Shown here: one piece after another, positions 28,570-45,618 of the stretch
Layout: each line of letters begins with the position of its first letter
How positions within the stretch are numbered: the first letter of the stretch is position 1
Notes under the pieces: model-generated
What the model saw: only the letters and a program-made list of their open reading frames with translations
Told to the model about the DNA's origin: nothing
Databases searched by the model: none
Program-made: the position numbers and the translations under genes
Assembly: GCA_963793265.1 (NCBI GenBank)
Contig: CAWBZI010000001.1
Coordinates: 1,120,001-1,184,000 of the forward strand
Origin: an uncultured cyanobacterium
Lineage (GTDB): Bacteria; Cyanobacteriota; Cyanobacteriia; Phormidesmidales; Phormidesmidaceae
DNA: 64,000 bases
Direction: 5' to 3'

Positions 28570-28800
28570 GCGTCTTCTTGCCTTATTTTGTACGTACACT
28601 TTATTTAAATTTGAACGAACACATCTGATTGATACTGTTAATATAGCCTTATAAACAAAGGAGAGTACATTTTATCCGCTTTGGCACTGAGTTTATGTTT
28701 AGAAAAAATACGTAATTCCAGCGTTAGAGCAAAACCCTAATTAAAGACGCTAGATTTACCCTGTTGCTGAGGCCATCATGCAGAACTCAGAGGTAGCTTA

Positions 28801-29052: not shown

Positions 29053-31722
29053 ATGCGATTACTCAACAGACAGCCTCAAACAATCGAAGAAAAATATTTT
29101 AGCTCTATTCGTCCTCAGCTTTTTGCACAGCACAGCCAACACGCTCAGACAGGCATCAGGCAGGGTAAAACTCTAGCCGAGCACCTTGATTCAGTCTGTC
29201 AATTTGTTTTGACAATAAGCAAGTTAGCGGCGATGTCAGAGAAAGAAAGGGGTATCATTCTAGCTGCGGCGGCTGTGCACGATCTAAACAAGCTTGATAA
29301 ATCTGGGAAAAACAGAAATGTAAAGACGTTAGCCAGAGATAAAGATTTCCTTCGACAAGAATTAGATTCAATAGGAGTTGGTGAGTTTGTTTCTGAGGGA
29401 GATGAGAGTGAACTAGCGAGACAGCTAATTGAGAGACACTCTGGGCACAACATATCCGACGGAACGATCTTTCTTCCACAAGATGAACAAATAAGCCGTT
29501 GGGCCTCTATTCTTAGAGCTGCCGATCTGTTTGACTTAGAAATTTCAGATGAAGCGCTGACCCGAAAGCTGCGTACGGAGCTGACTCATGCGCTGAATCG
29601 TAATAGTAATCTATACAGAGTTCGGGTATCTGAACAGAGAGGTCATATTACAGCGCTTCTGTTAGCAGCTTGCGAGGAAGTGCTAATTGAGCATTCGCTT
29701 ACTCCTATTGCATTATTTCCAGATGGAGAATTATTTGAGGGTGAAAGGTTTCCTTCAAACGTAACGACGAAGATTGCGGAAAGGTGGCAGCGTAAGATAG
29801 GCAGTACTTTTGCGAACAATATTGAGAAGCTAGTAACGACAGGAAACAACGGTATTAGAATCGCAAGTGAAGCAGTTCAGTACGAACCAGAGGAAGTGAT
29901 TAAAACTGTGGTGGCGCGGCTTGAGCAGAAGAAATCTAGCTTCGATAGGGAGAAAGTTAAAAGTGAGGTTATCAAGCATATCCAGAATAAAGCAAACCCT
30001 GCACACATAGAAAAGGCTGCTCAAGTTGGATTGCAGCCGATCAACGACGAGACAGGTTTCTATCTGTCAGAGGGTCTAAAAGCCGCTTTCATTAGCTATG
30101 GATCGTTAAAGGCGTTCAGTAGCGCAGCTAAAAGATGGACGAGAATCTTTAGCCATGTAGGTATCTCAGAAGAGCAAGGTCAAGTCCTGATGATGGACAA
30201 AGCTAATTTTGAGGCTCAGTATGCAGTACCCATGATGGCAGCGACCGGAATGAAAAACGGGATAGAGGGAATCAAGTCAGCTTTGATGGAATCGATCTGC
30301 CTAAGGGCAAAAGATTCGAGTATTGTACCTTTAGATATTTTGACGGCTCTTGTGGAACAATCCCTTTTACTGCCTCAGAAAGAGCAGACAGTAAGCTTTC
30401 GCGAGTTGGACGATTACATCAATGCCAAACCTACTCAGAGGTGTTCATTCGGGGGTGCTAATCAAGTAACCGAAAAAATAAAGGCAGCTAACCTGCCCGT
30501 GGGAATGAAAGTTCAGGTATTTTCTAACCGGCTGGCTGGGGGGTCTTCAGCACCACCGGAACGGAAGGCTAATTCAATAGCCTACCTTGCGTACAAAGTT
30601 ATGAATGTCGGTTCTCAACTGCCTAAGAAATCGAAAGCGCCCCCTTACTACCTATCGTTTGTGATGCCAGAAGGTTCATGCCCAGAATACCGTAGAATTT
30701 GGCGCGAATGTATACGAAACTTAGCCGCGACAAATACAGAGGAAGGCCCTGTTTCTGTGGATATGGAAAAACTATACGCAGACAACATATTGGAGTTCAA
30801 AAGTGATAAGGGAACTGGATTCGCATTCCCGAAGCGATCGGATTTTGTGGGTGCTGTTGTCGTTATTCCTATTATGTTTGGAGATCTTAGCAGTTCTAAA
30901 AGCCTGTTAAAAGCAGCAAGACTTGCCATGGAATTGTCTCTTTCTTTAGAGATAGGTTTTCCGTTTGTACTGGGTCAAAGTTTACAAATAGAAACCGTTG
31001 ATGAAAATTACGGTCGAATAGAAGGCATTCCTAGTACGTTGTCTAACTTGCTCGGAAGTGGTCAATACAGCCAAAAAGAAACAGTTGAAGTGCTTGACCG
31101 TTTGAGATCGCTAGGGAAAATTGCACAGAGTATTACAGGAAAAAAACACGTAGAAGACTGCATATACGAGCTGGCAAGGGCATGTTCTGAGCCGTTTAGC
31201 ATATACCAGGTAGTTCTTCGTTGGGTGCTTAGGCAGCAAAACCCTAACCTAGCGGAAACATGGAAACACATCAGCACACCACTTCAAAGTTTAATGGATA
31301 GCCTTATGCCCGAAGACAACAAACAACTCACTGAGTACTTGAAGAAAGCCGCAAGCCTCGCTGCTAATAAGAACCTCAAGGGAAGGTCACTGAATCGAAC
31401 CTCTAAAACAAAACCTTTCTCAGATTTTCTCAAAGCGGTTCGTTCACAAAAATCTCACATGGACTTAGATTTTCTGTTTGCTTCACTATCACAAACCTTT
31501 TTCAATCACTTAGATACGATATGGAACGGGCATGTGGGAGAAACACAGAAAAAGAATATATCAGAATACTACGGAGTTCTCCGCCAGCTTTATGAGGAAG
31601 TTTATGATAGCCGACCAGAGAGAATCATGAGCGATCGCAAGCAGCTAGAAGCCGCCTATCTATTTTTCTGGGAGGATGCGTTCCAAAAGCGCACAAAGAA
31701 GCCAGAGAACGACGACGATTAG
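29053..31722 (+). CDS. cas10d: Type I-D large subunit Cas10d (Csc3) with N-terminal HD nuclease
   Basis: TLAEHL, AAAVHDLNK, ERHSGH, AADLFD and VQVFSNRL motifs; operon position. Confidence 0.92.
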   Translation: MRLLNRQPQTIEEKYFSSIRPQLFAQHSQHAQTGIRQGKTLAEHLDSVCQFVLTISKLAAMSEKERGIILAAAAVHDLNKLDKSGKNRNVKTLARDKDFLRQELDSIGVGEFVSEGDESELARQLIERHSGHNISDGTIFLPQDEQISRWASILRAADLFDLEISDEALTRKLRTELTHALNRNSNLYRVRVSEQRGHITALLLAACEEVLIEHSLTPIALFPDGELFEGERFPSNVTTKIAERWQRKIGSTFANNIEKLVTTGNNGIRIASEAVQYEPEEVIKTVVARLEQKKSSFDREKVKSEVIKHIQNKANPAHIEKAAQVGLQPINDETGFYLSEGLKAAFISYGSLKAFSSAAKRWTRIFSHVGISEEQGQVLMMDKANFEAQYAVPMMAATGMKNGIEGIKSALMESICLRAKDSSIVPLDILTALVEQSLLLPQKEQTVSFRELDDYINAKPTQRCSFGGANQVTEKIKAANLPVGMKVQVFSNRLAGGSSAPPERKANSIAYLAYKVMNVGSQLPKKSKAPPYYLSFVMPEGSCPEYRRIWRECIRNLAATNTEEGPVSVDMEKLYADNILEFKSDKGTGFAFPKRSDFVGAVVVIPIMFGDLSSSKSLLKAARLAMELSLSLEIGFPFVLGQSLQIETVDENYGRIEGIPSTLSNLLGSGQYSQKETVEVLDRLRSLGKIAQSITGKKHVEDCIYELARACSEPFSIYQVVLRWVLRQQNPNLAETWKHISTPLQSLMDSLMPEDNKQLTEYLKKAASLAANKNLKGRSLNRTSKTKPFSDFLKAVRSQKSHMDLDFLFASLSQTFFNHLDTIWNGHVGETQKKNISEYYGVLRQLYEEVYDSRPERIMSDRKQLEAAYLFFWEDAFQKRTKKPENDDD
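31306..31722 (+). CDS. cas11d: Probable internally translated small subunit Cas11d (138 aa)
   Basis: In-frame ATG (MPEDNKQLTEYLKKAA) preceded by atGGAtagcctt. Internal Cas11 translation from cas10d is established for type I-D. Confidence 0.6.
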   Translation: MPEDNKQLTEYLKKAASLAANKNLKGRSLNRTSKTKPFSDFLKAVRSQKSHMDLDFLFASLSQTFFNHLDTIWNGHVGETQKKNISEYYGVLRQLYEEVYDSRPERIMSDRKQLEAAYLFFWEDAFQKRTKKPENDDD

Positions 31723-31766
31723 ATATATTCAGCTTTGTTAAATAGAACACAGAGGAAACGCAAACC

Positions 31767-32783
31767 ATGTCTATTGAAAAACTTGCTCCGTTTTTAGCCG
31801 AGCAGTACGAGAACTTTCCGAAAGGAAGATTCGTGAGTGCAGTTGTTTTAAGAACAACTTTATCTGAAACAGTTTTCCGCACAGAAGGAACCGGAGAGCC
31901 GGTATGTAAAGAATTCGTTCATGCAGGTGTCAAAACTCAAGACGTTATTGAGCGGCTGGTCATGACGAAACGCAAACAAGTTGCACCAGAGCGCCGAAAG
32001 GGACGAGAATTTCTTAGAGCGCACGACCTGCTTAAGATAGTAGAAAAGAAGGGTAAGGGAAAAAATGCAAAAACAGAGAAGCTACCTTGCTCGTTGAATA
32101 CGAACGCACCGTGCGAAATGTGCATCGACTGCTTCACATACGGATTTGCAGCCGGTGGCGGCGGCGCTCAAAAAAGTCGCATTTGGACAGAGGATGCTTT
32201 TAGTCTATTGCCAGCCAATGAATTAATAGACGATCGCACTATCAATGGCGTTTATGAAAACGGAACTATGCGATTGCCTCAGCAGGAAGAGGCAAAAGAT
32301 AAAGCGTCACAGTCGCTCAATACCAGCGAGTACATAAAACCAGGCGTACATTTTCTAGACGTTGTTACATTCAAAGATTTGACGGCAGACGAGCTAAGGT
32401 ACTCGCTTGGAAATATTCTACTGACTACTCGCTACGGAGCAATTTCTAGCCGAACTGGCAGAATGGACAATCAAATTTTGGGAGTATTTGGAGGTTCTAC
32501 GGAACTGCCTAGCTCTCTTGAGCTAGTGCAGCAAATATATGACAAGATGTTCGAGAAAGAAGAGCGTTTTGAACATCCTCTAGCACCGAACGCTATTAAG
32601 GAAAACACCTTTGGGGTTATCTCTGAATGGGAGAACAGGCGGGGCGTTTCAGTTAGGCTTTCGGAAGTAGAAACAAAGTCGTTAGTTGCAGACGTAGATA
32701 GGCATTGGGCAGATGAAGAACGAGCTTCATTTTTAGAGAGACTGGATCAGTCTTACGAACCCTTTCGCAGAATTTCTACATAG
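31767..32783 (+). CDS. cas7d: Type I-D Cas7 (Csc2)
   Basis: KRKQVAPERR.GRE, C..CIDC..YG.A.G, QKSRI and TTRYGA motifs. Confidence 0.93.
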   Translation: MSIEKLAPFLAEQYENFPKGRFVSAVVLRTTLSETVFRTEGTGEPVCKEFVHAGVKTQDVIERLVMTKRKQVAPERRKGREFLRAHDLLKIVEKKGKGKNAKTEKLPCSLNTNAPCEMCIDCFTYGFAAGGGGAQKSRIWTEDAFSLLPANELIDDRTINGVYENGTMRLPQQEEAKDKASQSLNTSEYIKPGVHFLDVVTFKDLTADELRYSLGNILLTTRYGAISSRTGRMDNQILGVFGGSTELPSSLELVQQIYDKMFEKEERFEHPLAPNAIKENTFGVISEWENRRGVSVRLSEVETKSLVADVDRHWADEERASFLERLDQSYEPFRRIST

Positions 32784-32792
32784 GGAGACTTT

Positions 32793-33623
32793 GTGATGCC
32801 GACTATTGAACAAATGGGCTTGAATATAGCAAAAGAGCCTACCGCCCAATTCAAAAAAGCGCGACTCATCGAGATATGGTGCGCTGAGCCTGTCTTCTTC
32901 GCATCTAGAGAGATTTCTGATGGTTACTACACAGAAGGCGTACTTGGAAACTACGCCTTAGCTTATGCGCTAGGCTGGGTGTCTTCTCCTTATAGGCTAG
33001 AAGGCAAGGCCGTACACAGACCGTCTTATGTAGAAGACTTAGGGCCAATATCGCGAGATTCGTATATTTTGCCAGCTTGGCCCTCAACTGGGCAGGTAAA
33101 GTTTATATTTGAGCGATTCAACGCCTTATCAGATTCTTACTGGTACGCGATGAGTGCTAACAGAGTTGTAACCGATAGGAAAGCGCTACCAGAGTATAGG
33201 CAACTACAAAAGATAAAAGGAACGCCTACTCCGAAACACCGCTCGTACGCACCTATCAACTTTCCACAGACAGGTCAGATTCGGATGATTGACCGAGGCA
33301 ATCGGTTTCAAACATTAGTATTTGGGAACAGAGAACTTCCAGAGCACTTTCGCATTGGGAAGTTCAGAAGTAAAGTTCAACTTTCGGTACTGGCAGAGTT
33401 TAGCTTGGAATCGCTGCCAGAGGCAGAATACATTTGCATACCCTTACTAAATACCGCTGACCTGCCGTCCAACCTTAAACTCACAGCCTTCGATCTAGTT
33501 TCAGTGCCACCTGCATCACTTTTGAAAAACTTGCGTTTTAAAGGAGAAGCTTGGCGGATTGGAAACTTTGTTGTTCCTGCCCATCTTCAGTTCTGCGGAA
33601 ATCGAGTCTCTCATGAAAAATGA
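32793..33623 (+). CDS. cas5d: Type I-D Cas5 (Csc1)
   Basis: VFFASREI, NYALAYALG and RIGKFRSK motifs. Confidence 0.9.
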   Translation: MMPTIEQMGLNIAKEPTAQFKKARLIEIWCAEPVFFASREISDGYYTEGVLGNYALAYALGWVSSPYRLEGKAVHRPSYVEDLGPISRDSYILPAWPSTGQVKFIFERFNALSDSYWYAMSANRVVTDRKALPEYRQLQKIKGTPTPKHRSYAPINFPQTGQIRMIDRGNRFQTLVFGNRELPEHFRIGKFRSKVQLSVLAEFSLESLPEAEYICIPLLNTADLPSNLKLTAFDLVSVPPASLLKNLRFKGEAWRIGNFVVPAHLQFCGNRVSHEK

Positions 33624-35907
33624 AGCAATAAACATTACGCTTGAGCCAAAAGGCATTGCGGCCTGCACAGATTTGCCACCACAGCTAGCTTTTATGGGTC
33701 GAGCCTTGCAACATCAGGTAGACGTATTCGATAAAGCTGTTAACCACAACATCATCGTTAACTCATCATCTACAGGGACAGGGAAAACTAAAGCAGCATT
33801 CACAGTTCTACTGCATGAGAAAAATAGAAACCGACATGCTATCTATGTTGCGCCAACTAATGCGCTAATTGAACAACAAAAATCAGCCGCAGAGAAATTT
33901 ATAAAACAGGCAGATCTTTCGCATGTTGTCATAGAGGCATCTGCAAAAGATATCAGAAGCTGGCCAAGCGATAGAGTAGGAATACGTCCAGGCGAAAAAA
34001 TCTATAACCTGTTGAGGAATCCGGCCACTATTTTTCCTGAGTTGGGAAGCAATCGGCCCGTTTTGCTCATCACTAATCCAGATATCTTCTACTACGCTAC
34101 CTTCTTTGCCTATCGTCAATTGGATCGCGTAAATATTGCCAGTAAGTTTTATAGCCAGTTCTCGACAGTAATTTTTGATGAGTTTCATCTCTACGATGCC
34201 AAGCAGCTAATTGGACTACTTTTCTACATGGCCCTCTCTCATGAGTTCGGGTACTTCAATCATGGGCGGCGAATAATTTTGCTAACAGCGACACCTGAGC
34301 CTGCCTGCGAGTCAACATTGGAAAGTCTATCTAGGCAAGGCGTCAAAATTGCATATGTCGATGGAGAGTCTACCAGTGAGAACCTACTACCGTCTCAAAC
34401 AACAGTAAATTTGTGCATTCGCCCACAACCCGATAGGGATCAACTAATCTTAGAAATTAGCCGCAAAGTTCAGAGAAACCTGAAAGACAACCCAGATAAC
34501 TACGGTGCCGTTATTCTGGATTCGCTCGATCAAATCAATCAGCTTTCCGACGAGCTACAGAGTAAAGGATTAGGTCGTGAGGTTGGAAGAATAACAGGGC
34601 CATCCCCTTTAGCTGATCGTCAGCGTGCAGCACAGTGCAAAATAATCTTAGCTACTAGCACTGTTGATGTTGGCTTTAATTTTGAGCGAAATCCTACATC
34701 AGAAAGGCAACCTTTGGACTGGATAATCTTTTCTGCCCAAGATCGCGCTGCTTTCTGGCAGCGCATTGGTCGAGTTGGTCGGGTTTTAGGAAGATCGCAA
34801 ACTGATATTTCTTCTGTAGCTACAGCTTACTTACCAGAAAAAGCCTGGGAGCAGAATATAAGTTCGCTTAATGGGTTACAGGGGCGCGAGGCTCTTGAAC
34901 AAAAGCTATTAGAGGTAGATTGTCTCGATCGCCCTTTCCTCTCTGTTTATTGGCAGTCTGAGGCTTTTGTAGAAATCGCTCGGCCTTTTTTGATTCTTGA
35001 AAATATGATGGACGGGTTGGCAGAAAGTGAACTACTATCAAACCTTTATCAGACAATCAAAAACGTTTTGGGTGGAAAGCGTGACTGGAAATACTATAAA
35101 CAAAGAATGCAAGCATTGCAGGCAGCGGAGTCAATAGCACAACATCGCGGCAACGATGCGAAGAACCCACCGCTTAAGTTTATAAAAGGAAATGCTAGAT
35201 GGGCAATAGTGACAGCTTTTCTAAAGGCAGAATGTCCAGAAGACTGGGAAGAGCTGAAAGCGGGAAAGACAAACATAAGGGATTACGAAGAAGTTTTGAG
35301 CGAATCTTCTGAAGCTATTACCGCATTCCGCACCTTTTGCAAGAAATTCAGTGTTAGCTACTCACCCCTTTTTGGTTTTCGTTCTAGCTTGTTCAAAAGT
35401 CTAGATATCAAAGATCCAAGAGGATTTCTGCTAGATGTTTCAGACAAGACTGTGATTGATCCGATCCATCTTCTTCGCTACTACGAGTTCTCTAACGATC
35501 AAGATACGGTTGAATTGGTAAATCGTGCTGCGCAGCCCTATCAGGTAAGCTTTCGACTGAGATATTACGATAACAGCTTGAGCTGGAAGAGCGATCACAT
35601 GAATAAACTTCAGTCATTTGAGAATTGTCATATCGAACGTAGAAGAGACGGCGCTCTTTCACCTACACCGCTTCTATCGAAATTAGAGAGAGAGCTGATT
35701 CCGGGCGCAATTATCTGCCCGGTTGCAAATGCTTATGCCTACTACCAATCGAGAAAGGACAGGATAGTATCTTATCCAATCACTGTAGTTGGAAACAACT
35801 TTGAAAAAGAGTATGTATTTTTTCCTGGGCTTTCAGGAATTTTGACTCTAGCGCTTTATGGCACGCGGCTAAAGCTGCCGGATGAGGAGGAGTTTCTATA
35901 CTTTTAA
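33613..35907 (+). CDS. cas3: Type I-D helicase Cas3' (no HD domain)
   Basis: TGTGKT, APTNAL, ITNPDIF, DEFH, TAT, TSTVDVG and QRIGRVGR motifs. ATG 33613 overlaps the end of cas5d. Confidence 0.92.
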   Translation: MKNEAINITLEPKGIAACTDLPPQLAFMGRALQHQVDVFDKAVNHNIIVNSSSTGTGKTKAAFTVLLHEKNRNRHAIYVAPTNALIEQQKSAAEKFIKQADLSHVVIEASAKDIRSWPSDRVGIRPGEKIYNLLRNPATIFPELGSNRPVLLITNPDIFYYATFFAYRQLDRVNIASKFYSQFSTVIFDEFHLYDAKQLIGLLFYMALSHEFGYFNHGRRIILLTATPEPACESTLESLSRQGVKIAYVDGESTSENLLPSQTTVNLCIRPQPDRDQLILEISRKVQRNLKDNPDNYGAVILDSLDQINQLSDELQSKGLGREVGRITGPSPLADRQRAAQCKIILATSTVDVGFNFERNPTSERQPLDWIIFSAQDRAAFWQRIGRVGRVLGRSQTDISSVATAYLPEKAWEQNISSLNGLQGREALEQKLLEVDCLDRPFLSVYWQSEAFVEIARPFLILENMMDGLAESELLSNLYQTIKNVLGGKRDWKYYKQRMQALQAAESIAQHRGNDAKNPPLKFIKGNARWAIVTAFLKAECPEDWEELKAGKTNIRDYEEVLSESSEAITAFRTFCKKFSVSYSPLFGFRSSLFKSLDIKDPRGFLLDVSDKTVIDPIHLLRYYEFSNDQDTVELVNRAAQPYQVSFRLRYYDNSLSWKSDHMNKLQSFENCHIERRRDGALSPTPLLSKLERELIPGAIICPVANAYAYYQSRKDRIVSYPITVVGNNFEKEYVFFPGLSGILTLALYGTRLKLPDEEEFLYF

Positions 35908-35955
35908 TCTTGTTAAGAAGTCTGCTGACTATCCAAAACGCACTGAAGAATTGCT

Positions 35956-36828
35956 ATGCCCTACAGTCTTGTCCTCAATCTTGTACCGCTCTCTCCAATT
36001 CCCAAAACGCATCTAAGCGGGCGACATTTACACGCGCTGTTTTTGGATTTGGTCAGGTCGCATAACCCGGAGCTAGCAACCATCCTCCACGGCCAAACCA
36101 CCCAGAAAGCCTTTACCCTCAGCCCGCTACAAACCAATATCACCACGCAACAGTCACCCGAAACGCTGCAATGGAGCTATCGAAACGCCATCCCTGCGGG
36201 CTCCTTGTGCTGGTGGCGCATTACATTGCTAGATGACACGCTGTTTGCGCAGCTTGCTCACCTGTGGCTGGGCTTGGATAAACAGCAGCAGTGGCAGCTT
36301 GGGGGCAGTCCGATTCAGGTGACGCGCGTGATTGGGACGCAGCAGTTAGGTCAGCCCTGGGCGGGCTATGTGGGTTATCAGCAGCTTTATGAGCAGGCGA
36401 GCGATCGCACTCGAAAACTCCCTTTTAAGCTATGCACCCCCACTAACTTTCGCATCAGCGACTACGACTCTTCTATGCCAACGCGCGATCGCGTATTCAA
36501 AAGCCTGCTAAAGCGCTGGAACCACTACAGCAACATCCCGTTTGAGCCTGACATTATCAGCCATATCTACCCCGGCGAATACAGCATCCATTCAGAAATC
36601 GCCATCGACAGCCGCAGCAAATTTATCGGCTGTGTTGGCAATCTCTCTTTTAATATTCTGGGTGATCTGATGCCGAGCACGGTTAAACAAATTAACGCGC
36701 TGGCAGCGTTTTCTTTGTATGCAGGCGTCGGACGAAAAACGCCAATGGGTATGGGGCAAACGTTTTATGGTGAGATGAAGGCGAATGCTGTGCCTAAGCC
36801 TAAGCCGAGGCGCAAGGTAGCGGTATGA
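35956..36828 (+). CDS. cas6: CRISPR pre-crRNA endoribonuclease Cas6
   Basis: MPYSLVLNL, GRHLHALF, KAFTLSPL and glycine loop GVGRKTPMGMG. Confidence 0.95.
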   Translation: MPYSLVLNLVPLSPIPKTHLSGRHLHALFLDLVRSHNPELATILHGQTTQKAFTLSPLQTNITTQQSPETLQWSYRNAIPAGSLCWWRITLLDDTLFAQLAHLWLGLDKQQQWQLGGSPIQVTRVIGTQQLGQPWAGYVGYQQLYEQASDRTRKLPFKLCTPTNFRISDYDSSMPTRDRVFKSLLKRWNHYSNIPFEPDIISHIYPGEYSIHSEIAIDSRSKFIGCVGNLSFNILGDLMPSTVKQINALAAFSLYAGVGRKTPMGMGQTFYGEMKANAVPKPKPRRKVAV

Positions 36829-37403
36829 GTATTCAGTATTTGCCGCTCTCCTATCTCAATGCTTGGGAGTATTGCCATCGCCGCTTTTACTTGGAGTATG
36901 AGCTGGGAGAGATGAAGATAAATGAGCATATTGTGATGGGGACTCATCTGCATCGGAACGTGGATGAGGAAACGGTGCGGCGAGAAGGAGAGACGACGAT
37001 TTATCAGCAGCAGTGGGTGTGGAGCGATCGCCTAAAAATATCCGGTATCATCGACGCCGTAGAAGAAACTCACGGACACCTTGTACCGCTCGAATACAAA
37101 AAAGGGCGCATGGGCAAACACCTGAGCGATCACTTTCAGCTTTGCGGGGCGGCGCTGTGTTTGGAGGAGCGCATGGGGAGAGAGATTGAGTATGGAGAGA
37201 TTTTTTATCATGCCAATCGGCGGCGGGAGCGGGTGATGTTTACTGAGGAATTGCGGGGTAAAACGGAGGCTGCTGTGATGGCAGCGATCACAGCCACCCA
37301 GTCCACCATTCCCGCACCCATCACCCACAAAACCAAATGTAGCGCCTGTAGCCTCACAGAAATTTGCCTACCCAAAGAAGTTCTCGCTTTACAACAATTA
37401 TGA
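36825..37403 (+). CDS. cas4: CRISPR-associated exonuclease Cas4
   Basis: YCHRR, GIIDAVE, EYKKG, QLC and C..CSL...C Fe-S cysteines. Confidence 0.95.
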   Translation: MSIQYLPLSYLNAWEYCHRRFYLEYELGEMKINEHIVMGTHLHRNVDEETVRREGETTIYQQQWVWSDRLKISGIIDAVEETHGHLVPLEYKKGRMGKHLSDHFQLCGAALCLEERMGREIEYGEIFYHANRRRERVMFTEELRGKTEAAVMAAITATQSTIPAPITHKTKCSACSLTEICLPKEVLALQQL

Positions 37404-38377
37404 CCTCTCTTTACATCACTCAGCCCGACGCCCGGCTCAGCAAAAAATACGAAGCCTTTAAAGTCTCGCTTAAGCAAGAAGATGGCACCTGGAAAAATCA
37501 ATCTGTGCCTGCGCAAACTGTTGAAGAAGTGGTGCTGATGGGCAATCCTTCGGTGACTGGCGATGCGCTGATGTATGCGCTGGAGCTAGGGATGCCGGTG
37601 CACTATCTCTCTCCTTTTGGTAAATACTTAGGGGCGGCGCTGCCAGGACATTCTCGCAACGGACAGCTCAGGCTGGCGCAGTATGGCGCTTACAAGGATG
37701 CTGATGCCAAGCTGACGATTGTGAAGGCGATGGTAACCGCTAAAATTCATAACCAGTATGCGGTGCTGTACCGGCACGGGCAAAAGGAGAATCCCTTAAA
37801 GCTGCGGAAGGCGTTGGTAGCGCAGCAGCATAGCGTGGATCAGGTGCGGGGGATTGAGGGGCTGGCGGCGAGAGAGTATTTTGCGGGGCTTTCGGGGATG
37901 CTGGCGGAGGAGTGGAAGTTTGGGGGGCGCAATCGACGGCCGCCGACTGATCCGGTGAACGCGCTGTTGAGCTTTGGCTATGCGCTGTTGCGAAGCCAGG
38001 TGACTTCGGCGGCGCATATTGCCGGGCTCGATCCTTATGTGGGCTATTTGCATGAGGTGCATCACGGGCAACCGGCGATGGTGCTGGATTTGATGGAGGA
38101 GTTTCGGCCTTTGGTGGCGGATAATGTGGTGCTCGCGACGATCAACAATCGGTCGATTCAGCCGCAGGATTTTACAGAGAGTTTGGGGGCGTACCGGCTG
38201 AGTGACGGGGGGCGGCGGACGTTTTTGCAGGCGTTTGATCGCAAGCTGAACGATACGTTTAAGCATCCAACGTTTGGGTACAAGTGTAGCTACCGAAGAG
38301 CGATCGCACTTCAGGCCCGGCTCTTAGCTAAGCATCTGCAAGAGGGCGTTGTTTACAAGGGTTTGGCGCTGCGATGA
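37400..38377 (+). CDS. cas1: CRISPR integrase Cas1
   Basis: RGIEGLAA, RNRRPPTDPVNALLSFGY and LDLMEEFRP motifs; ATGA overlap with cas4. Confidence 0.96.
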   Translation: MTSLYITQPDARLSKKYEAFKVSLKQEDGTWKNQSVPAQTVEEVVLMGNPSVTGDALMYALELGMPVHYLSPFGKYLGAALPGHSRNGQLRLAQYGAYKDADAKLTIVKAMVTAKIHNQYAVLYRHGQKENPLKLRKALVAQQHSVDQVRGIEGLAAREYFAGLSGMLAEEWKFGGRNRRPPTDPVNALLSFGYALLRSQVTSAAHIAGLDPYVGYLHEVHHGQPAMVLDLMEEFRPLVADNVVLATINNRSIQPQDFTESLGAYRLSDGGRRTFLQAFDRKLNDTFKHPTFGYKCSYRRAIALQARLLAKHLQEGVVYKGLALR

Positions 38378-38667
38378 CGACGCTCTTTTATCTCATTATT
38401 TACGATTTGCCAGATAGTAAGGCGGCAAATAAGCGGCGCAACCGGCTGCATAAGCTGCTGTCGGGCTATGGCCAATGGACGCAGTACAGTGTGTTTGAGT
38501 GCTTTTTGAATGGGGTGCAGTTTGCGAAGTTGCAAGTGCAGATAGAGCGGCTGATTAAGGTGAATGAGGATTCGGTGCGGGTGTATGTGTTGGATGCGGG
38601 GGCGGTGAAGAAGTCGCTGACGTATGGGTCTGAGCAGCCGAGGCAAGCGTCAGCGATTATTTTGTAG
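38374..38667 (+). CDS. cas2: CRISPR-associated Cas2
   Basis: YLIIYDL, QYSVFEC and DSVRVY motifs; ATGA overlap with cas1. Confidence 0.96.
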   Translation: MTTLFYLIIYDLPDSKAANKRRNRLHKLLSGYGQWTQYSVFECFLNGVQFAKLQVQIERLIKVNEDSVRVYVLDAGAVKKSLTYGSEQPRQASAIIL

Positions 38668-38731
38668 GAGGGGCACGGGCTATAGATGCTACCTTAAGGG
38701 CGTGAGCATTTGTTCAGCGGAGCCCTAACGT

Positions 38732-39448
38732 ATGGTTTCTCAACTTTCTAAACTTGCTGAGTCTGAAGTAGCTGACGTTTTCTATCCAGATTCTGATGGT
38801 CAGCCGATGGCAAGCAACACGGAGCAATACCGCTGGATTGTGATGATTCAGCAGAACTTAGACTGGCTTTTGTCGGATGCTTTTGTCGCGGGCGATTTGT
38901 TTTGGTATCCCATTGAAGGCCGTTCGGATGTGTCTGTTGCGCCGGATGTGATGGTGGCTGTTGGAAGGCCGAAAGGAAAAAGGCTTTCTTATAAGCAGTG
39001 GGAAGAAGAGGGTGTTGCGCCACAGGTTATTTTTGAGATCATTTCGCCTAGCAACACTAAACGAGAGATGGATAAAAAGCTGCTTTTCTTTGAGCGTTAT
39101 GGGGTTGAAGAGTATTATCTTTACGACACTGAACGTAACAGTTTGGACGGCTTTTTACGGGGTGAGTTTGGCTTAGAGCATATTGCAGATATGGCTGGCT
39201 GGGTAAGTCCTTTGCTTGATATTCGTTTTGATATGTCGGGCGATGAGCTGACGCTATTTCGTCCGGATGGAACGCCTTTTTTGAGCTATCAAGAGGTTAT
39301 TGAGCAAGCTGAAGTGGCTAAGCAGGAGACTGAAGCGGCTAAGCAGAAGGCTGAAGTGGCTAAGCAAGAAGCTGAAGTGGCTAAGCAGGAGACTATGAAG
39401 CTGGCTGAGAAGCTCAGAGCGCTTGGCGTTGACCCCAATGCTGTATGA
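38732..39448 (+). CDS. Uma2-family (PD-(D/E)xK-like) protein with coiled-coil tail
   Basis: YPDSDGQPMA, APDVMV, FEIISPSN, YGVEEYY and LRALGVDP motifs. Confidence 0.9.
   Translation: MVSQLSKLAESEVADVFYPDSDGQPMASNTEQYRWIVMIQQNLDWLLSDAFVAGDLFWYPIEGRSDVSVAPDVMVAVGRPKGKRLSYKQWEEEGVAPQVIFEIISPSNTKREMDKKLLFFERYGVEEYYLYDTERNSLDGFLRGEFGLEHIADMAGWVSPLLDIRFDMSGDELTLFRPDGTPFLSYQEVIEQAEVAKQETEAAKQKAEVAKQEAEVAKQETMKLAEKLRALGVDPNAV
39308..39391 (+). repeat. 21-bp tandem repeat x4 encoding AEVAKQE heptads
   Basis: gctgaagtggctaagcaggag and three near copies. Confidence 0.85.
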
Positions 39449-39639
39449 TTTTGGCAAAGCCAAGCGGGGGCGATTTCCCTGGGAGGTTTGCCAAAACGCT
39501 AGAACCTTGATAATTCAATAGCTTTGAGAATTTTAGGGAGGGGCGATCGCGATGAATGTCAGCTATTTTTGCTGGTTTTTATGACCTTTGCCAAAACCCT
39601 CTCTGAGATCGATGTATAGTAAGGGTTCCAAAGGCCGGA
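39449..39639 (+). promoter_or_regulatory. CRISPR leader of array 2
   Basis: Same three motifs and identical spacing as leader 1. Confidence 0.85.
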
Positions 39640-42600
39640 CGCGCCAAACCCAAATCCCGATTACCGGGACTGAAACCTAACGGCTGCCGAGTAGAGCACG
39701 TAAACAACTCATTGCGCGCCAAACCCAAATCCCGATTACCGGGACTGAAACGAATGACGAAGTTTGATTTAGACGACTTTTACAGGCGCGCCAAACCCAA
39801 ATCCCGATTACCGGGACTGAAACTGGACATGTTAGGCATGAGCGCGCTTGACATGGAAGCGCGCCAAACCCAAATCCCGATTACCGGGACTGAAACTTTG
39901 GTGCAAAACGGGCAACACGACGCGCCGGTACATCGCGCCAAACCCAAATCCCGATTACCGGGACTGAAACTTGCTGCTTGAGCCATTAGCAAGTAATCCA
40001 AGTGTCCGCGCCAAACCCAAATCCCGATTACCGGGACTGAAACTACAGCAGTGACTTGACCGACCTTAAGAATCCTGCTTCGCGCCAAACCCAAATCCCG
40101 ATTACCGGGACTGAAACATTTGGCATTCATTACTGCTAATGTATCGCGAACTAAACGCGCCAAACCCAAATCCCGATTACCGGGACTGAAACAGATGCTG
40201 CAGGCTGCACTGCGCAATCGCATCGACTTATCGCGCCAAACCCAAATCCCGATTACCGGGACTGAAACTCAAGACCTTTGCTGTACTCAGCACGGGTTGA
40301 AGCTAAGCGCGCCAAACCCAAATCCCGATTACCGGGACTGAAACTAGCGCTAGGCTCGGTCTATGACAGCGAACGGCTACGGCCGCGCCAAACCCAAATC
40401 CCGATTACCGGGACTGAAACATTACGCGCAACTGCCATCAGATGCACCCAATCAGTCGCGCCAAACCCAAATCCCGATTACCGGGACTGAAACATCTAGC
40501 CGAAGACTTGCCAGCCGCAAGTTCTACTAAGCCGCGCCAAACCCAAATCCCGATTACCGGGACTGAAACATCGTGATGCTGCAGAGACGTTCGCGAGCAA
40601 TCTGAGCGCGCCAAACCCAAATCCCGATTACCGGGACTGAAACACAGCGGCAGTGCTGCAGACGATTGACAGCAGTCGGACCGCGCCAAACCCAAATCCC
40701 GATTACCGGGACTGAAACCGTCGATCGCAAGCTTCGACAGCGTTAAGCCGTATCAACGCGCCAAACCCAAATCCCGATTACCGGGACTGAAACGTTGACT
40801 ACTAGTCTGCAAGCAGCATTCGCTCCGCGTCGCGCCAAACCCAAATCCCGATTACCGGGACTGAAACTTAGCTACTGCTGAACTGCGCACAGGCGAACTG
40901 ACTGGCGCGCCAAACCCAAATCCCGATTACCGGGACTGAAACTCAACGACTGCTAGTCCGCTCAAGTGCCGACTGCACGCGCGCCAAACCCAAATCCCGA
41001 TTACCGGGACTGAAACGCTAGTTGGCTCAGGCTGGTTCGAATACTAGTCGACGCGCCAAACCCAAATCCCGATTACCGGGACTGAAACGATCAGCTGATG
41101 TACGCCGATAGTCGTTGAATCAGCGCGCGCCAAACCCAAATCCCGATTACCGGGACTGAAACGATAGTCGTGACTGTAGCCAGCGATTCAAGCGCGTCGC
41201 GCGCCAAACCCAAATCCCGATTACCGGGACTGAAACTTGCAGCTTGCCAGACTTGAAGGTCAGCTAAATTTTTCGCGCCAAACCCAAATCCCGATTACCG
41301 GGACTGAAACGATCTGCGATCGCACTAGCGCCTCGCCGCGTATCTGTCCGCGCCAAACCCAAATCCCGATTACCGGGACTGAAACAAGCAATCTTCTAGA
41401 CTTCACATCGGAGTTCAATGCTCTCGCGCCAAACCCAAATCCCGATTACCGGGACTGAAACGATGATTGCGAATGTCTGTTAGCTTGATTTGCGACAGCG
41501 CGCCAAACCCAAATCCCGATTACCGGGACTGAAACAACAATCTGCTAGACTTCCAATGCGGGTTCAATGCTGCCGCGCCAAACCCAAATCCCGATTACCG
41601 GGACTGAAACATTAGATGCGCTGTCCGAACTCGCGGAGAGAATCGCAGCGCGCCAAACCCAAATCCCGATTACCGGGACTGAAACGCAGCGGCGTTGCAG
41701 ACTCGACTACGCAAGCGTACAGCGCGCCAAACCCAAATCCCGATTACCGGGACTGAAACGCGTAGGGATAGACGTGGTGCCGACTGCTAATCACCGCGCG
41801 CCAAACCCAAATCCCGATTACCGGGACTGAAACATTCCAGACACTATCAGAGCCGTAGCAAGCGCTGATACGCGCCAAACCCAAATCCCGATTACCGGGA
41901 CTGAAACTCTAGAATAGCGTTATGGATTAGCGCACGTATGCTAACCCGCGCCAAACCCAAATCCCGATTACCGGGACTGAAACCATTGGACACTATCAGA
42001 CTGCGACTGTCAGGTGTCTGTCCGCGCCAAACCCAAATCCCGATTACCGGGACTGAAACACAGTGCTATCAACGTCCGGACTAACGCTGGACAGCAGGCG
42101 CGCCAAACCCAAATCCCGATTACCGGGACTGAAACTTAGCATCGTCAGTGAGCAGTTCCGGCCAAGCCTGTTGCCGCGCCAAACCCAAATCCCGATTACC
42201 GGGACTGAAACATCTGAATCTATTAGACTGTATGTGCTAGGACTGTTAGCGCGCCAAACCCAAATCCCGATTACCGGGACTGAAACTAGACAGACTCGGA
42301 CTGGCTCAGCATCAGCAGCTATCGCGCCAAACCCAAATCCCGATTACCGGGACTGAAACAATCCGAATCACTTTATGCCCTGGGCGCATCTCTTGCCGCG
42401 CCAAACCCAAATCCCGATTACCGGGACTGAAACGGATCTCAGCAGATGGCATTACCGCTGGCCTAGCTACGCGCCAAACCCAAATCCCGATTACCGGGAC
42501 TGAAACACAAACGCAGACAAGCAGCTTAAAATCGCCTGCAAGCGCGCCAAACCCAAATCCCGATTACCGGGACTGAAACATTTGATTCGCTATAGTATCA

Positions 42601-43773
42601 GTCGGCAGGCTTTGATCCGCGCCAAACCCAAATCCCGATTACCGGGACTGAAACATTCGGACAATGCAGCTGATCATAACGAGCTCTAGATTCCGCGCCA
42701 AACCCAAATCCCGATTACCGGGACTGAAACGTGGGTGAGCGTTAGTCATCGCGAGAACGTTTCGATGCCGCGCCAAACCCAAATCCCGATTACCGGGACT
42801 GAAACTGTTCGGCGCTCCAATAACGACTGCCACGCTGACCGCACCCGCGCCAAACCCAAATCCCGATTACCGGGACTGAAACTCCTCTACGACCTCTTCT
42901 AGGGAGATGAGTCGGCTTCGCGCCAAACCCAAATCCCGATTACCGGGACTGAAACATCGACAGCAGCGGCACGATCGGACACATTTTCGATCGCGCCAAA
43001 CCCAAATCCCGATTACCGGGACTGAAACGTCTCAGCAGCATCGGCATTAGCCTCTAGTCTAGCTAGCGCGCCAAACCCAAATCCCGATTACCGGGACTGA
43101 AACGAGCTCTCCAAGATAGACGAGGCACACGACTCGACCCCCGCGCCAAACCCAAATCCCGATTACCGGGACTGAAACATCGCCTCTGCCACCGATAGAG
43201 TATTGCGAACATCCGCGCCAAACCCAAATCCCGATTACCGGGACTGAAACTCATGCGTTTACCTACAGCCGGTACGTATTAGACCTGTCGCGCCAAACCC
43301 AAATCCCGATTACCGGGACTGAAACACGTGCTGAGCTGACCGAGACAGGACGTAGCACTAGAGCGCGCCAAACCCAAATCCCGATTACCGGGACTGAAAC
43401 ACCTCATCCCAATCAGCAATGCAACTGACAGCCAAGGCCGCGCCAAACCCAAATCCCGATTACCGGGACTGAAACCTGCTGAAGGTGTTAGAGCTGAATG
43501 CGCGGGGCGGGCCTTCTGACGCGCCAAACCCAAATCCCGATTACCGGGACTGAAACGAATTAGACCGCTATGAAACAGTCATCCTGTCTAATCGCGCCAA
43601 ACCCAAATCCCGATTACCGGGACTGAAACCACATCGAAGGGCAGCGGCCCCGGTTCGTGAGCCCACGCGCCAAACCCAAATCCCGATTACCGGGACTGAA
43701 AATTTCAACTGCGCTATTGTATGGGGGTAGCAAACACACGCCAAACCCAAATCCTGATTACCGGGAGTAAGTC
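39640..43773 (+). CRISPR. CRISPR array 2 (type I-D), about 56 repeats and 55 spacers
   Basis: 37-nt repeat CGCGCCAAACCCAAATCCCGATTACCGGGACTGAAAC. The penultimate repeat ends GAAAA and the terminal repeat 43737-43773 is degenerate. Counted by hand. Confidence 0.98.
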
Positions 43774-43774
43774 G

Positions 43775-44035
43775 ATGAGCCCAGCTTTATCTAAAATGAT
43801 AAACGAGCTAAGTCAGCTCTCGCCTCAAGAACAGTGGACATTGTTAGGATACCTAACAAATCGGTTGCAAGACACTGTTCGCTTAGACGAAGCATCATCT
43901 AAGTTGAAACCTACAACGGAGATGGGGAATGCCCTTTCTATCTTCGAAGAGACTAGAGGAATGTGGGGCAGTAGCAGCCTGACATCAATAGATGACGAAC
44001 TCAGTAGACAAAGGCAAAACGACTGGGGAGAATGA
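43775..44035 (+). CDS. Putative VapB-like antitoxin
   Basis: MSPALSKMINELSQLSPQEQ...RGMWG...RQRQNDW; directly upstream of a PIN gene; GGAG 7 nt upstream of the ATG. Confidence 0.7.
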   Translation: MSPALSKMINELSQLSPQEQWTLLGYLTNRLQDTVRLDEASSKLKPTTEMGNALSIFEETRGMWGSSSLTSIDDELSRQRQNDWGE

Positions 44036-44438
44036 GCCCGACATCGCAAAACTAATTTTTGATACTAATATCTTCATCTACCATTTCAACAATCAGCTAG
44101 GCGAGCTAGGAACCGATCTTCTTAAGCAAGGACTGCTGAACTCAGGCGCTTATTCAGTCATTTCAAAAATTGAGGTACTAGGCTTCAAGCAGTCCAAAGC
44201 TGATGATACGAAAGCTCGACAGTTTTTGTCTCAGCTCGTCGAACTACCGCTGACCGCCAAAGTTACAGAACGAACAATTTCAATTCGCCAGAATTTAAAG
44301 ATAAAAACGCCTGATGCCATCATTGCAGCTACAGCAATAGAGCACTCACACCGCCTAGTGACTCGCAACTCAAGTGACTCCAGCAAAATCGAGGATTTAG
44401 ACTGGCTGAATCCTTTCATAGAACAAGACCACTCGTAA
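43992..44438 (+). CDS. vapC: PIN-domain (VapC) toxin, start possibly frameshifted
   Basis: IFDTNIFIY, ISKIEVLG, KTPDAIIAATA and LVTRN motifs. Confidence 0.8.
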   Translation: MTNSVDKGKTTGENEPDIAKLIFDTNIFIYHFNNQLGELGTDLLKQGLLNSGAYSVISKIEVLGFKQSKADDTKARQFLSQLVELPLTAKVTERTISIRQNLKIKTPDAIIAATAIEHSHRLVTRNSSDSSKIEDLDWLNPFIEQDHS

Positions 44439-44462
44439 TTGTGATGAATTCGTGTGAAACAT

Positions 44463-44492
44463 TTGACACATCAAAAATACTGCTGATACGCT
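44463..44492 (+). promoter_or_regulatory. Sigma70-type promoter
   Basis: TTGACA (44463-44468), 18-nt spacer containing an extended TG, TACGCT (44487-44492). Confidence 0.6.
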
Positions 44493-44498
44493 GTATCT

Positions 44499-44672
44499 TA
44501 CGGTTGTTCTCGCAACAACCTAACGACCGTCTTGAAAAAACTAGCCATTGTCGGCGTTGGCTGGAACCCAACACCGACAACTAACCTCTGAACTGATTAG
44601 ACCAGTAAAGAGGCTGTGGGTATCATCCCACAGCCACCCTGGCGCTTGGCAAGTCGGAGTGGCTATTTTTTT
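44499..44672 (+). ncRNA. Structured leader RNA / candidate attenuator
   Basis: Hairpins at 44502-44520, 44548-44580, 44585-44613 and 44612-44635, and a terminator-like stem at 44632-44664 followed by T7. Confidence 0.5.
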
Positions 44673-44707
44673 CTGGGTTTTCTTCAACCACTCACCCGAA
44701 GAACCCA

Positions 44708-45033
44708 TGAAAATCATGACTTTCACAGCCAATCAACCGCTACAAGCCCGTCCAACAGCTCACCCAGAAACTCGCCAAATTATTACCCAGGCCATCACTC
44801 AATCTGAGCCAACCACCGCCCTACAGCTTTCGTCAAACGGCACCGATCCCGGCGAATCTCTCCGGCATATTTTACTGGGTAGCCCCAGCGCTATCCAACA
44901 GACCATTCACCTACTCCACAAGCTTCACTACGCCGAAACCCTCTTGTGGACACCCATCCTCACCATCGAAGAACCGTTGAACATTACACCTGCGCAAGGC
45001 GAAGCAATCAGCCTGCTCAAAAAGCAAATATAG
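44708..45033 (+). CDS. Conserved cyanobacterial hypothetical protein
   Basis: LRHILLGSPSAIQQTIHLLHKLHYAE...W...GEAISLL pattern; start ATG near 44708 is approximate. Confidence 0.6.
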
Positions 45034-45091
45034 CCAAAGGTGCATTCGCAGGCTGGCTATAAAACAAACCAGCCTGCGAATACAAACAAAT

Positions 45092-45274
45092 CTAAAACAG
45101 CACTTGACCTGAATACTCGCCCGACTGCCGAGCCCCGTCCGACTCCATATCAGAATACTCACGCGCTGACATCACCTGGCTAGCCACCAGTAGCATCAAC
45201 AGCAGCACAAACGGGATCGATACAAAATTAAACAACAACTTACACCAAGCTTCACTAAAAGAAGACTGATACAC
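45092..45274 (-). CDS. Possible small single-pass membrane protein
   Basis: 60-aa ORF with one hydrophobic helix; no other support. Confidence 0.3.
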   Translation of the reverse strand: MYQSSFSEAWCKLLFNFVSIPFVLLLMLLVASQVMSAREYSDMESDGARQSGEYSGQVLF

Positions 45275-45618
45275 AGCGAAACCTCACGAGCAACGAAAAT
45301 TAGGAGCGAAGAGAAGACAAAGCGAAAAGACGAAGCGGCTCCCTTGTGTATTCATTCTCCATGTCATAGATGCCCATAGCCGGACGGTTAGTGACACAAC
45401 CAAAAGTGGTTTGTCACAAATCTTTCAAAAGGTATACGCACGAGGTCGTACAAACCGTACTCAAAGCTTGTTTTTGTATCAGCGGCCACTCTGACTAACA
45501 GCAACAACTTTTACGTATTAGCAGCTAAACGTAAAGGTATCAAGAACTGCATTCGATACCCTTGTATTCGCCCGATCGCGCTGTAAAATCCTTAATAGCT
45601 TGGAAAAAGGACTTGAAA

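Follow-up and report, generated by a model that had tools for sequence, protein, structure and literature searches.

The 64,000-nucleotide stretch of cyanobacterial DNA analysed here (contig CAWBZI010000001.1, Phormidesmidaceae; called the window below, with all positions counted from its first letter) carries at 44,463 to 45,033 a compact cassette, in which a promoter is followed by a structured RNA of about 155 nucleotides (nt) and then by a gene for a protein of about 100 amino acids (aa). Here, we show that the RNA is a conserved five-helix structure with a closing helix, P0, around four hairpins, P1 to P4. The conserved output element is a further hairpin, which buries the Shine-Dalgarno (SD) sequence and the start codon of the gene. 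The features of the cassette in the window are the following.

44453..44468, no strand: putative operator, inverted repeat TGTGA-N6-TGACA overlapping the -35 box, read from the sequence
44463..44492, + strand: promoter, with -35 TTGACA (44463-44468), an 18-nt spacer and -10 TACGCT (44487-44492)
44483-44492, + strand: conserved 10-nt motif enclosing the -10, from conservation among leaders
near 44499, + strand: presumed transcription start, from the position of the promoter
44502..44520, + strand: first hairpin, 7-bp stem GGTTGTT/AACAACC, from sequence, fold and paralogue alignment
44525..44547, + strand: 5' box, the 5' strand of P0, from minimum free energy (MFE) folds, duplex energies and a cognate/non-cognate test
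44534-44540 and 44542-44547, + strand: A-run and TAGCCA inside the 5' box, read from the sequence
44548..44580, + strand: hairpin P1, 13 positions per arm (12 of 13 bp), with one conserved C.A or A.C mismatch site
44585..44613, + strand: hairpin P2, outer stem CCTCT/AGAGG, inner stem ACTG/CAGT (44592-44606), 2x2 internal loop between them
44612..44635, + strand: hairpin P3, perfect 9 bp GGCTGTGGG/CCCACAGCC, its first GG common to P2 and its last AGCC common to P4
44632..44664, + strand: hairpin P4, AGCCAC..GTGGCT, the 'terminator' stem, with 11 modelled pairs
44660..44673, + strand: 3' strand of P0, TGGCTA plus T7 (44666-44672), in this copy also a terminator-like U-tract 1 base past P4
44673..44709, + strand: hairpin sequestering the ribosome-binding region, with anti-SD 44673-44685, SD-like GAAGAA..CCC 44698-44706 and ATG 44707-44709
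44707..45033, + strand: gene for the 108-aa protein, with a variable N-terminal part and a conserved C-terminal alpha/beta domain
45041..45085, no strand: perfect 17-bp inverted repeat just past the stop codon, without a T-run on the + strand, read from the sequence

Fold and covariation of the leader RNA

The leader folds with much greater stability than shuffled sequence. Positions 44495-44680 reach -72.1 kcal/mol, compared with -48.1 ± 4.2 kcal/mol for 200 dinucleotide shuffles, none of which folded as well (z = -5.66), and the z-score is -6.01 when the ribosome-binding region is included (44497-44730). From 12 leaders of the window's own genome, which are described below, we built a covariance model, R1, with 156 positions and 38 pairs, and aligned 49 homologous leaders to it for a covariation test. 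The signal for P1 to P4 was strong: 89.3% of the cells held standard pairs compared with 75.3% in shuffles, 32 of the 38 pairs changed on both sides compared with 19.0 ± 2.0, and none of 500 shuffles reached any of the five measures. Sliding the partners against each other by 1-3 columns lowered pairing to 33-43% of the cells. An alignment fitted to a model favours that model, but compensatory changes were also plain in a MAFFT alignment of the paralogues.

The individual hairpins differ in how they are conserved. Both-sided changes occur in all 13 pairs of P1, and P4 is paired in 94.9% of the cells over its 11 modelled pairs, six of which change on both sides. In P2, the inner stem is paired in 99.5% of the cells and the outer one in 79.6%. 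The leaders fall into a main and a divergent type, and some elements are kept in both branches, namely a non-canonical A.C/C.A site within P1 that adjoins an invariant ACCG in the P1 3' arm, the short P1-P2 linker, and the inner P2 stem ACUG/CAGU. The first hairpin, which precedes the five-helix domain, differs in sequence and length among the paralogues. R1 scores the sense strand at 150-160 bits and the reverse strand at about 23 bits, and G-U pairs are frequent in the P1-P4 alignment; the structure therefore belongs to an RNA with the same sense as the gene, and not to a DNA palindrome.

These results bear on an initial annotation of this region, which had been made from the sequence alone and had proposed a near-consensus promoter, a series of stems acting as a switch, and a downstream gene of unknown function. 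On reading the sequence, every stem that it named was found where it had been placed (the inner P2 stem was absent from it), and the gene is indeed one of 108 aa at 44707-45033 without a Pfam match. Its statement that two of the stems exclude each other also holds, because neighbouring helices share bases: P2 and P3 have GG in common, and P3 and P4 have (A)GCC in common, which in this copy is the AGCC at 44632-44635. Covariation among homologues, which it had suggested as a test, is present in the form described above. A different register, given by RNAalifold with the C-rich portion of the 5' box opposite the P4 3' arm, was rejected as the main one, since the one variable position of that arm covaries with the P4 5' arm (AU 28, CG 10, GC 4) and not with the 5' box.

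Closing helix, output hairpin and promoter

In the MFE fold, the 5' box is paired through its A-run and its TAGCCA to TGGCTA and the T-run behind it, TAGCCA at 44542-44547 being complementary to TGGCTA at 44660-44665. We examined this helix by an alignment-free procedure, in which each leader supplied a 32-nt segment preceding P1 and a 27-nt segment spanning the P4 end, and the best duplex between the two was computed. All 40 leaders gave a duplex of -17 to -29 kcal/mol that runs outward from the junction (-17.2 kcal/mol in the window's copy). The mean was -22.6 kcal/mol for cognate strands, -17.3 kcal/mol for non-cognate strands and -9.9 ± 3.5 kcal/mol for shuffled tails, and the cognate mean was reached by none of 10000 permutations overall, by none of 10000 for the main type alone and by 6 of 10000 for the divergent type. 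The pairing is kept while the sequences differ, as in G-A5/U5-C, C-A5/U5-G, UUA5/U5AA and CCCA5/U5GGG. Between the branches the helix is swapped as a whole: one has an A-run opposite a U-run, the other CAGAAC.. opposite ..GUUCUG, and in the divergent branch UCAGAACUCAA.. is paired with ..UUGGGUUCUGG.

Does the T-run mark a terminator? The initial annotation had read P4 and the seven T residues as one. A terminator-like stem with T7 is present at 44632-44672, P4 is a G+C-rich hairpin as intrinsic terminators require, and the window's copy, with a 1-nt spacer (A) followed by U7, is among the most terminator-like of all; a simple terminator scan did not list the site. Here, P4 followed by A and U7 probably ends many transcripts before the gene, so that attenuation would act on top of translational control. 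As a reading for the whole family, however, termination is doubtful. A U-run of at least five is found in 29 of 31 main-type leaders, where it mostly begins 4 nt past the stem, and in only one of nine divergent leaders, and the divergent branch nevertheless keeps P0 with entirely different sequences. Termination can therefore hardly be the conserved function, and the conserved role of the U-run appears to be the formation of P0, of which the U-run and the base of the stem are the 3' strand. Likewise, the 'third partner' that had been noted for the terminator 3' arm is real in that TAGCCA is complementary to TGGCTA, but it belongs to the long P0 strand found in 40/40 leaders. For annotation this carries a caution: what looks like a textbook terminator is largely one strand of a conserved long-range helix.

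Directly past P0, a pyrimidine-rich strand pairs with the SD sequence and usually with the start codon. This hairpin, of which the initial annotation made no mention, is present in 38/38 leaders and reaches the start codon in 32 of them. Its mean energy is -16.1 kcal/mol for cognate strands, -11.9 kcal/mol for non-cognate and -7.8 ± 2.9 kcal/mol for shuffled ones, with 0/10000 permutations reaching the cognate mean, and one paralogue that starts with TTG has the matching, compensating change on the upstream strand. The start codon follows P4 at a distance of 34-72 nt, an interval in which the leader alignment of the paralogues shows no conserved promoter motif. Measured from the end of P4, the best P0 duplex continues for 13-23 nt, and in most leaders the anti-SD strand begins after 7-11 nt; the two helices overlap and would therefore compete for several bases. 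The strand between the five-helix domain and the SD hairpin can either lengthen P0 with the 5' box or pair with the ribosome-binding region. The 5' box resembles that region, since CC.CGAAAAA of the main type is similar to CCCAUGAAAA and CAGAAC of the divergent type to CCAGAA just before the AUG, a resemblance to be expected of a mimic whose role would be to free the ribosome site.

The promoter call rests on conservation rather than on consensus, because the -10 TACGCT matches the consensus at only 3/6 positions and a consensus promoter scan did not list the site at 44463-44492. The description 'near-consensus' thus suits the -35, which is perfect (TTGACA), and the family as a whole conserves the element: the -10 motif is found in 34/34 main-type leaders examined and TTGAC[AG] in 29/34. 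An inverted repeat of the type TGTCA-N6-TGACA lies over the -35 of main-type cassettes, for example at loci L031, L033, L034, L056 and L064; the strict pattern TGT[CG]A-N6-TGAC[AG] is present in 9/34 main-type leaders, and looser GTCAA..TTGAC variants occur in other leaders. The repeat may be an operator for a dimeric DNA-binding regulator of the CRP/FNR kind. In the divergent branch, the first transcribed hairpin is a near-invariant TGTGA-N6-TCACA palindrome (12/15), some 20-40 nt past the -10, which has the sequence of the classical CRP-type site. Its half-sites are fixed, its spacer is variable and its stem, unlike the other helices, has no covariation; the palindrome is perhaps recognised in the DNA and is not a hairpin of the RNA. 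The divergent cassettes that carry it are L041-L047, L077, L079, L080, L082 and L083.

Copies, protein family and genomic surroundings

Is the cassette a singular arrangement in this genome? Searched at the DNA level, the own genome of 5.68 Mb in 7 contigs gave eight places similar to the RNA at 69-100% identity, and a protein search with the 108-aa product gave 12 strong paralogues (E < 1e-15) and 14 weaker matches. All 12 strong units have the same order: a TTGACA-type -35, the -10 motif, a variable first hairpin, a conserved A-rich box, three hairpins and another, G+C-rich one with a T-run, and finally a pyrimidine stretch, GGAGAAA as the SD-like sequence and the ATG. R1 recovered the 12 leaders at 115-160 bits and, in addition, eight distant copies at 31-52 bits, each just upstream of a weak protein match. 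We therefore count 20 cassettes in this genome (loci L164-L183).

Beyond it, R1 matched 36 of 61 relatives, including 30 of the 36 genomes of the genus with up to 24 matches per genome, and five of 24 single genomes from other families of the class; counted in the own genome and these relatives, a genome holds 10-24 diverged copies. Across a sample of the order, matches were found in 112/151 genomes (90/116 of good quality) and 15/18 genera, about 800 in all. Only within the window's genus did R1 score above about 95 bits, and the copies of other genera are of the divergent type. The named records with close protein homologues are from Phormidesmis, Phormidesmidales, Leptolyngbya sp. BC1307 and L. 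foveolarum.

RNA and gene are tightly linked in both directions. Starting from the RNA, 47 of 49 loci have a protein homologue within 420 nt downstream on the same strand, and the remaining two lie 64-66 nt before contig ends. In the reverse direction, protein motifs alone located 80 loci, and 69 of them have a same-strand RNA match upstream (E <= 1e-5), while the other 11 gave no RNA match even with filters off. Of these 11, one is truncated by the end of its contig, another no longer has the five-helix part, a third is pseudogene-like and eight belong to a third clade of the protein. The locus that lost the five-helix part, L099 in the record of Leptolyngbya sp. BC1307, has kept the U-run and the SD hairpin; as a natural deletion variant it could be informative. 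The third clade (L148-L151, L154, L155, L160 and L163) has, in place of the RNA, its own conserved promoter TTGACAT..GTCCGC..GCGTGC, and in five of the eight loci a same-strand gene ending in a helix-turn-helix (HTH) of the XRE type lies just upstream. In L154 this gene combines DUF7662 with the XRE-type HTH (HTH_3) and has a weak match to the MqsA antitoxin, at 23 bits and hence below the 30-bit cut-off.

The protein itself has no match in Pfam, NCBIfam, PADLOC or PHROGs. We found 111 and 63 homologues for the two branches; every one named by its source is a 'hypothetical protein' and most are nameless. A profile search gave 584 clusters at 50% identity, nearly all of 56-185 aa; a single match to a protein of 2068 aa, a repetitive MBG/Ig surface protein, was taken as spurious. 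The N-terminal part of about 45 residues is variable, with a predicted local distance difference test score (pLDDT) below 50 for residues 1-47. The C-terminal part of about 60 residues is conserved, with an invariant Trp and nearly invariant two His, one Gly and one Tyr among 140 diverse members. A model of the whole protein from a shallow alignment had a pLDDT of 51.4 and was excluded from the fold search. The C-terminal domain alone, modelled with 140 diverse rows, reached a pLDDT of 87.4 and a predicted template modelling score of 0.71, and consists of a strand, a helix, short strands and a final strand. With this model, Foldseek found no match in the PDB at E <= 0.001, and a PDB sequence profile search gave weak matches only (E >= 0.038). 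Two copies were modelled as a dimer intertwined through the first and last strands with a score of 0.80, compared with 0.01 for the best of three controls; agreement between the runs is at least 92% of contacts, and the partner pLDDT is at least 84. The mark used for dimers is reached by 20 of 30 proteins solved as one-chain pairs and by one of 23 solved as single chains. The model thus supports pairing, and the small protein is predicted to be a homodimer.

In the window, directly upstream of the promoter of the cassette, at 43721-44438, an open reading frame (ORF) of 104 aa without a family overlaps one of 148 aa with a PIN domain, a VapBC-like pair. Further upstream, at 29053-43750, is a locus of clustered regularly interspaced short palindromic repeats and associated genes (CRISPR-Cas) of type I-D character, with Csc2, a DEAD/ResIII helicase, Cas6, Cas4 and Cas1 identified by Pfam and a first ORF of 889 aa without a Pfam match. 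Its array runs from 40007 to about 43750 on the + strand and holds at least 51 copies of a 37-nt repeat ending in ..GAAAC, spaced 72-76 nt apart; a Uma2-like ORF (38732-39448) separates the array from cas1. A minus-strand ORF with WYL and WCX domains (27697-28599), which lies next to the cas genes on their upstream side, may encode a regulator of the CRISPR-Cas locus. Downstream of the cassette, the inverted repeat at 45041-45085 is probably its 3' end hairpin; a minus-strand ORF of 60 aa (45092-45274) comes after this repeat, and a PPC-domain protein and uvrA are also found on this side. The sole promoter-like site on the minus strand, at 44897-44869, matches the consensus at 9/12 positions and was rejected as a source of antisense control, as it overlies codons whose bases differ among the paralogues.

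Among the 86 ORFs neighbouring the 20 cassettes of the own genome there is no conserved neighbour gene, and the CRISPR array is not part of the unit, because the other 19 cassettes have unrelated neighbours. Genes of the toxin-antitoxin kind recur: PIN/PIN_3 near four cassettes, HigB with an HTH near two, Fic near one and DUF5615 near one. Uma2 (PF05685) lies within about 2.5 kb of 6/20 cassettes in varying orientation; given 49 Uma2 matches in the whole 5.68-Mb genome, chance would by a rough estimate account for about 0.9. The cassettes thus tend to sit in variable, island-like regions. The only phage-related match among the neighbours of the 20 copies is a holin-family domain.

Possible mode of action and alternatives

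The reading that we favour, tentatively and at a little less than an even chance, is that the segment from about 44499 to 44707 is the 5' leader of the small gene and belongs to a new family of structured leaders that act in cis. The extent to which the ribosome-binding region is exposed would depend on how the five-helix domain folds: in the default state the gene would be nearly silent, P0 would compete with the hairpin over the ribosome site, and binding of a factor to the five-helix domain would shift the balance. We favour a protein as this factor, and most likely the gene's own dimeric product in a feedback loop, because RNA and gene are inherited strictly together, because the RNA diverges copy by copy while its architecture is kept, and because the RNA-less clade has a dedicated promoter and regulator instead. 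Feedback by the own product would also explain why every paralogue has its diverged copy of the RNA. A need for tight control speaks for this reading as well, as the third clade, which has no RNA, has its own promoter and, in several members, an adjacent DUF7662-HTH regulator gene. The cassette would then resemble the autoregulatory leaders of genes for ribosomal and other RNA-binding proteins, in which a structured leader is strictly linked to one small-protein gene and the initiation of translation is the likely control point. In contrast to these, the family is multicopy and lineage-restricted, its protein is not known to bind RNA, and it has no known mimicry of a cellular RNA.

Several points weigh against this reading. 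A column-wise count of P0 on the model alignment found 77.2% of the cells paired, no excess of double changes and only four pairs changed on both sides, with 413/500 shuffles scoring as high. We put this shortfall down to the tails, which the model leaves unaligned, and for this reason replaced the column-wise test by the alignment-free duplex tests. P0 consequently rests on the latter, and near-identical kin inflate their significance. With its 17-25 bp, P0 is also unusual for a helix that opens and closes, and could equally be a static stalk or a site for RNase III. The duplexes of P0 and of the SD hairpin overlap when computed separately, but in the joint MFE fold of the window's copy both helices stand side by side; a switch between them is possible, and we infer it from the shared bases. 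The fold of the protein has no clear match, the best Z of a wide VIA-align search being 4.4 (to small oligomeric alpha/beta proteins), a level common by chance, and that the protein binds RNA is purely our inference.

The initial annotation had invoked terminator/antiterminator logic as in riboswitches, or an antisense cassette of the phage C4/ash type. The former is borne out insofar as a conserved, structured leader with mutually exclusive pairings exists, although the conserved elements are P0 and the SD hairpin, and the U-run is not kept in the divergent branch. Nothing speaks for the latter: the neighbours of the 20 copies offer no phage immunity context (one holin-family domain), and the complementarity to the ribosome site is a local hairpin. 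The c4-type antisense RNA of phages P1 and P7 likewise has an RNA segment ahead of the gene that is complementary to a ribosome-binding region, but in the cassette this complementarity lies within the same leader and no second target site was found.

Of the other explanations, the most serious is an RNA-protein pair similar to type III toxin-antitoxin systems, which we consider unlikely but worth attention. Termination at the U-run, or cleavage within P0, would yield an excess of the RNA, whose target would be the finished protein and not its synthesis: the RNA would bind and neutralise the protein or be its substrate. The window's copy has, as do ToxIN, CptIN and TenpIN loci, a promoter, a non-coding RNA, a terminator-like hairpin with a U-run and a small gene, and U-runs of at least five are the rule in the main type. 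The 10-24 diverged copies per genome lie in variable regions beside other toxin-antitoxin genes (PIN, HigB, Fic, and Uma2 in excess of expectation), translation appears tightly blocked, as for toxic products, the protein has two nearly invariant histidines, and the third clade has the DUF7662-HTH gene upstream, with its sub-cut-off MqsA match, in the place of the RNA. However, the RNA is a single five-helix domain and not a set of tandem repeats; Tandem Repeats Finder found nothing in 44400-45150, and the direct repeats in 40000-45500 are those of the CRISPR array only. The protein is unrelated by sequence to these toxins and matches no toxin family in Pfam, NCBIfam or PADLOC; a search of Pfam, NCBIfam, PADLOC and PHROGs, which should hold models of ToxN/AbiQ, CptN and TenpN, gave no match to any of these families. 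Furthermore, the divergent branch is without the terminator, so an excess of free RNA is not conserved, and in most main-type copies the U-run begins 4 nt past the stem. The working logic could still be that of type III even where the defining repeats and toxin families are missing. In this form the cassette would be a new addiction or defence module, with a non-repetitive five-helix leader RNA as antitoxin or substrate of a dimeric two-His effector, RNA matched to protein in each copy and a sister clade with the DUF7662-HTH gene in the place of the RNA; we regard this as unlikely too, and give it a shade less credence than the general type III-like pair.

A riboswitch, in which the five-helix junction would bind a small molecule or an ion and P0 would couple binding to exposure of the ribosome site (in the window's copy also to termination), is distinctly improbable. 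The cassette does have a covarying multi-helix domain directly upstream of a coding region, stretches conserved across branches (ACCG in the P1 3' arm, the P1-P2 linker and the inner P2 stem), and a closing helix that encloses several hairpins and, judging by its best duplex, would share its 3' strand with the putative expression platform that hides the ribosome-binding site, much like SD-sequestering leaders such as the five-helix lysine riboswitch. Yet P0 is very long for this role, few unpaired junction bases are left to form a pocket, copies within one genome diverge strongly (69-80% identity), and the sole gene controlled is of one uncharacterised family in about 20 copies, with no metabolic logic. 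No known class fits either, in agreement with the initial annotation, which had recognised no riboswitch consensus: Rfam 15 gave no match at the gathering threshold, for Lysine or any other model, in the whole window, and the six matches in 44300-45200 at E <= 10 are all on the minus strand with 12.8-19.3 bits against thresholds of 49-297. Still less probable is that the RNA is an independent small RNA which acts in trans and has its 3' end at the U-run, the small gene being a separate unit that accompanies it. The closed, very stable fold with a 3' U-tail paired to a 5' A-run would suit such an RNA, as would the terminator-like end in this copy, but the hairpin over the ribosome site of the small gene overlaps with the P0 3' strand, the start codon follows at a short and constant distance, the two parts have no conserved promoter motif between them and the divergent branch lacks the U-run. 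A DNA-level repeat, such as a miniature inverted-repeat transposable element (MITE) or another palindromic mobile element, we judge hardly credible: the family is multicopy and rich in inverted repeats, but its strands are not equivalent, its many G-U pairs would be A.C on the other strand, it keeps a fixed orientation and distance to one gene family, and a conserved promoter lies upstream.

With our tentative preference for a cis-acting leader, we rate the RNA as a new class within a known kind, the structured 5' leaders, for which Rfam 15 holds no such family. Full-text literature searches found no description of it. A 2026 RNA-structure screen of 202 cyanobacterial genomes (PMC12873609) is limited to the surroundings of 931 KEGG-annotated gene groups and so probably did not extend to the unannotated small gene; its supplements could still list the RNA. 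Unusual traits of the class would be the 17-25-bp closing helix, the five-way junction, the many diverged copies and a predicted dimeric protein as sole cargo.

In summary, a large and well-supported class of structured RNA would join the catalogue, tied to an equally uncharacterised protein family. The paired copies of RNA and protein are natural variants, by which binding partners and the evolution of specificity become directly testable. We anticipate that the closing helix of about 20 bp, which runs into the hairpin over the ribosome site, could represent a new translation gate or a new RNA-protein module.

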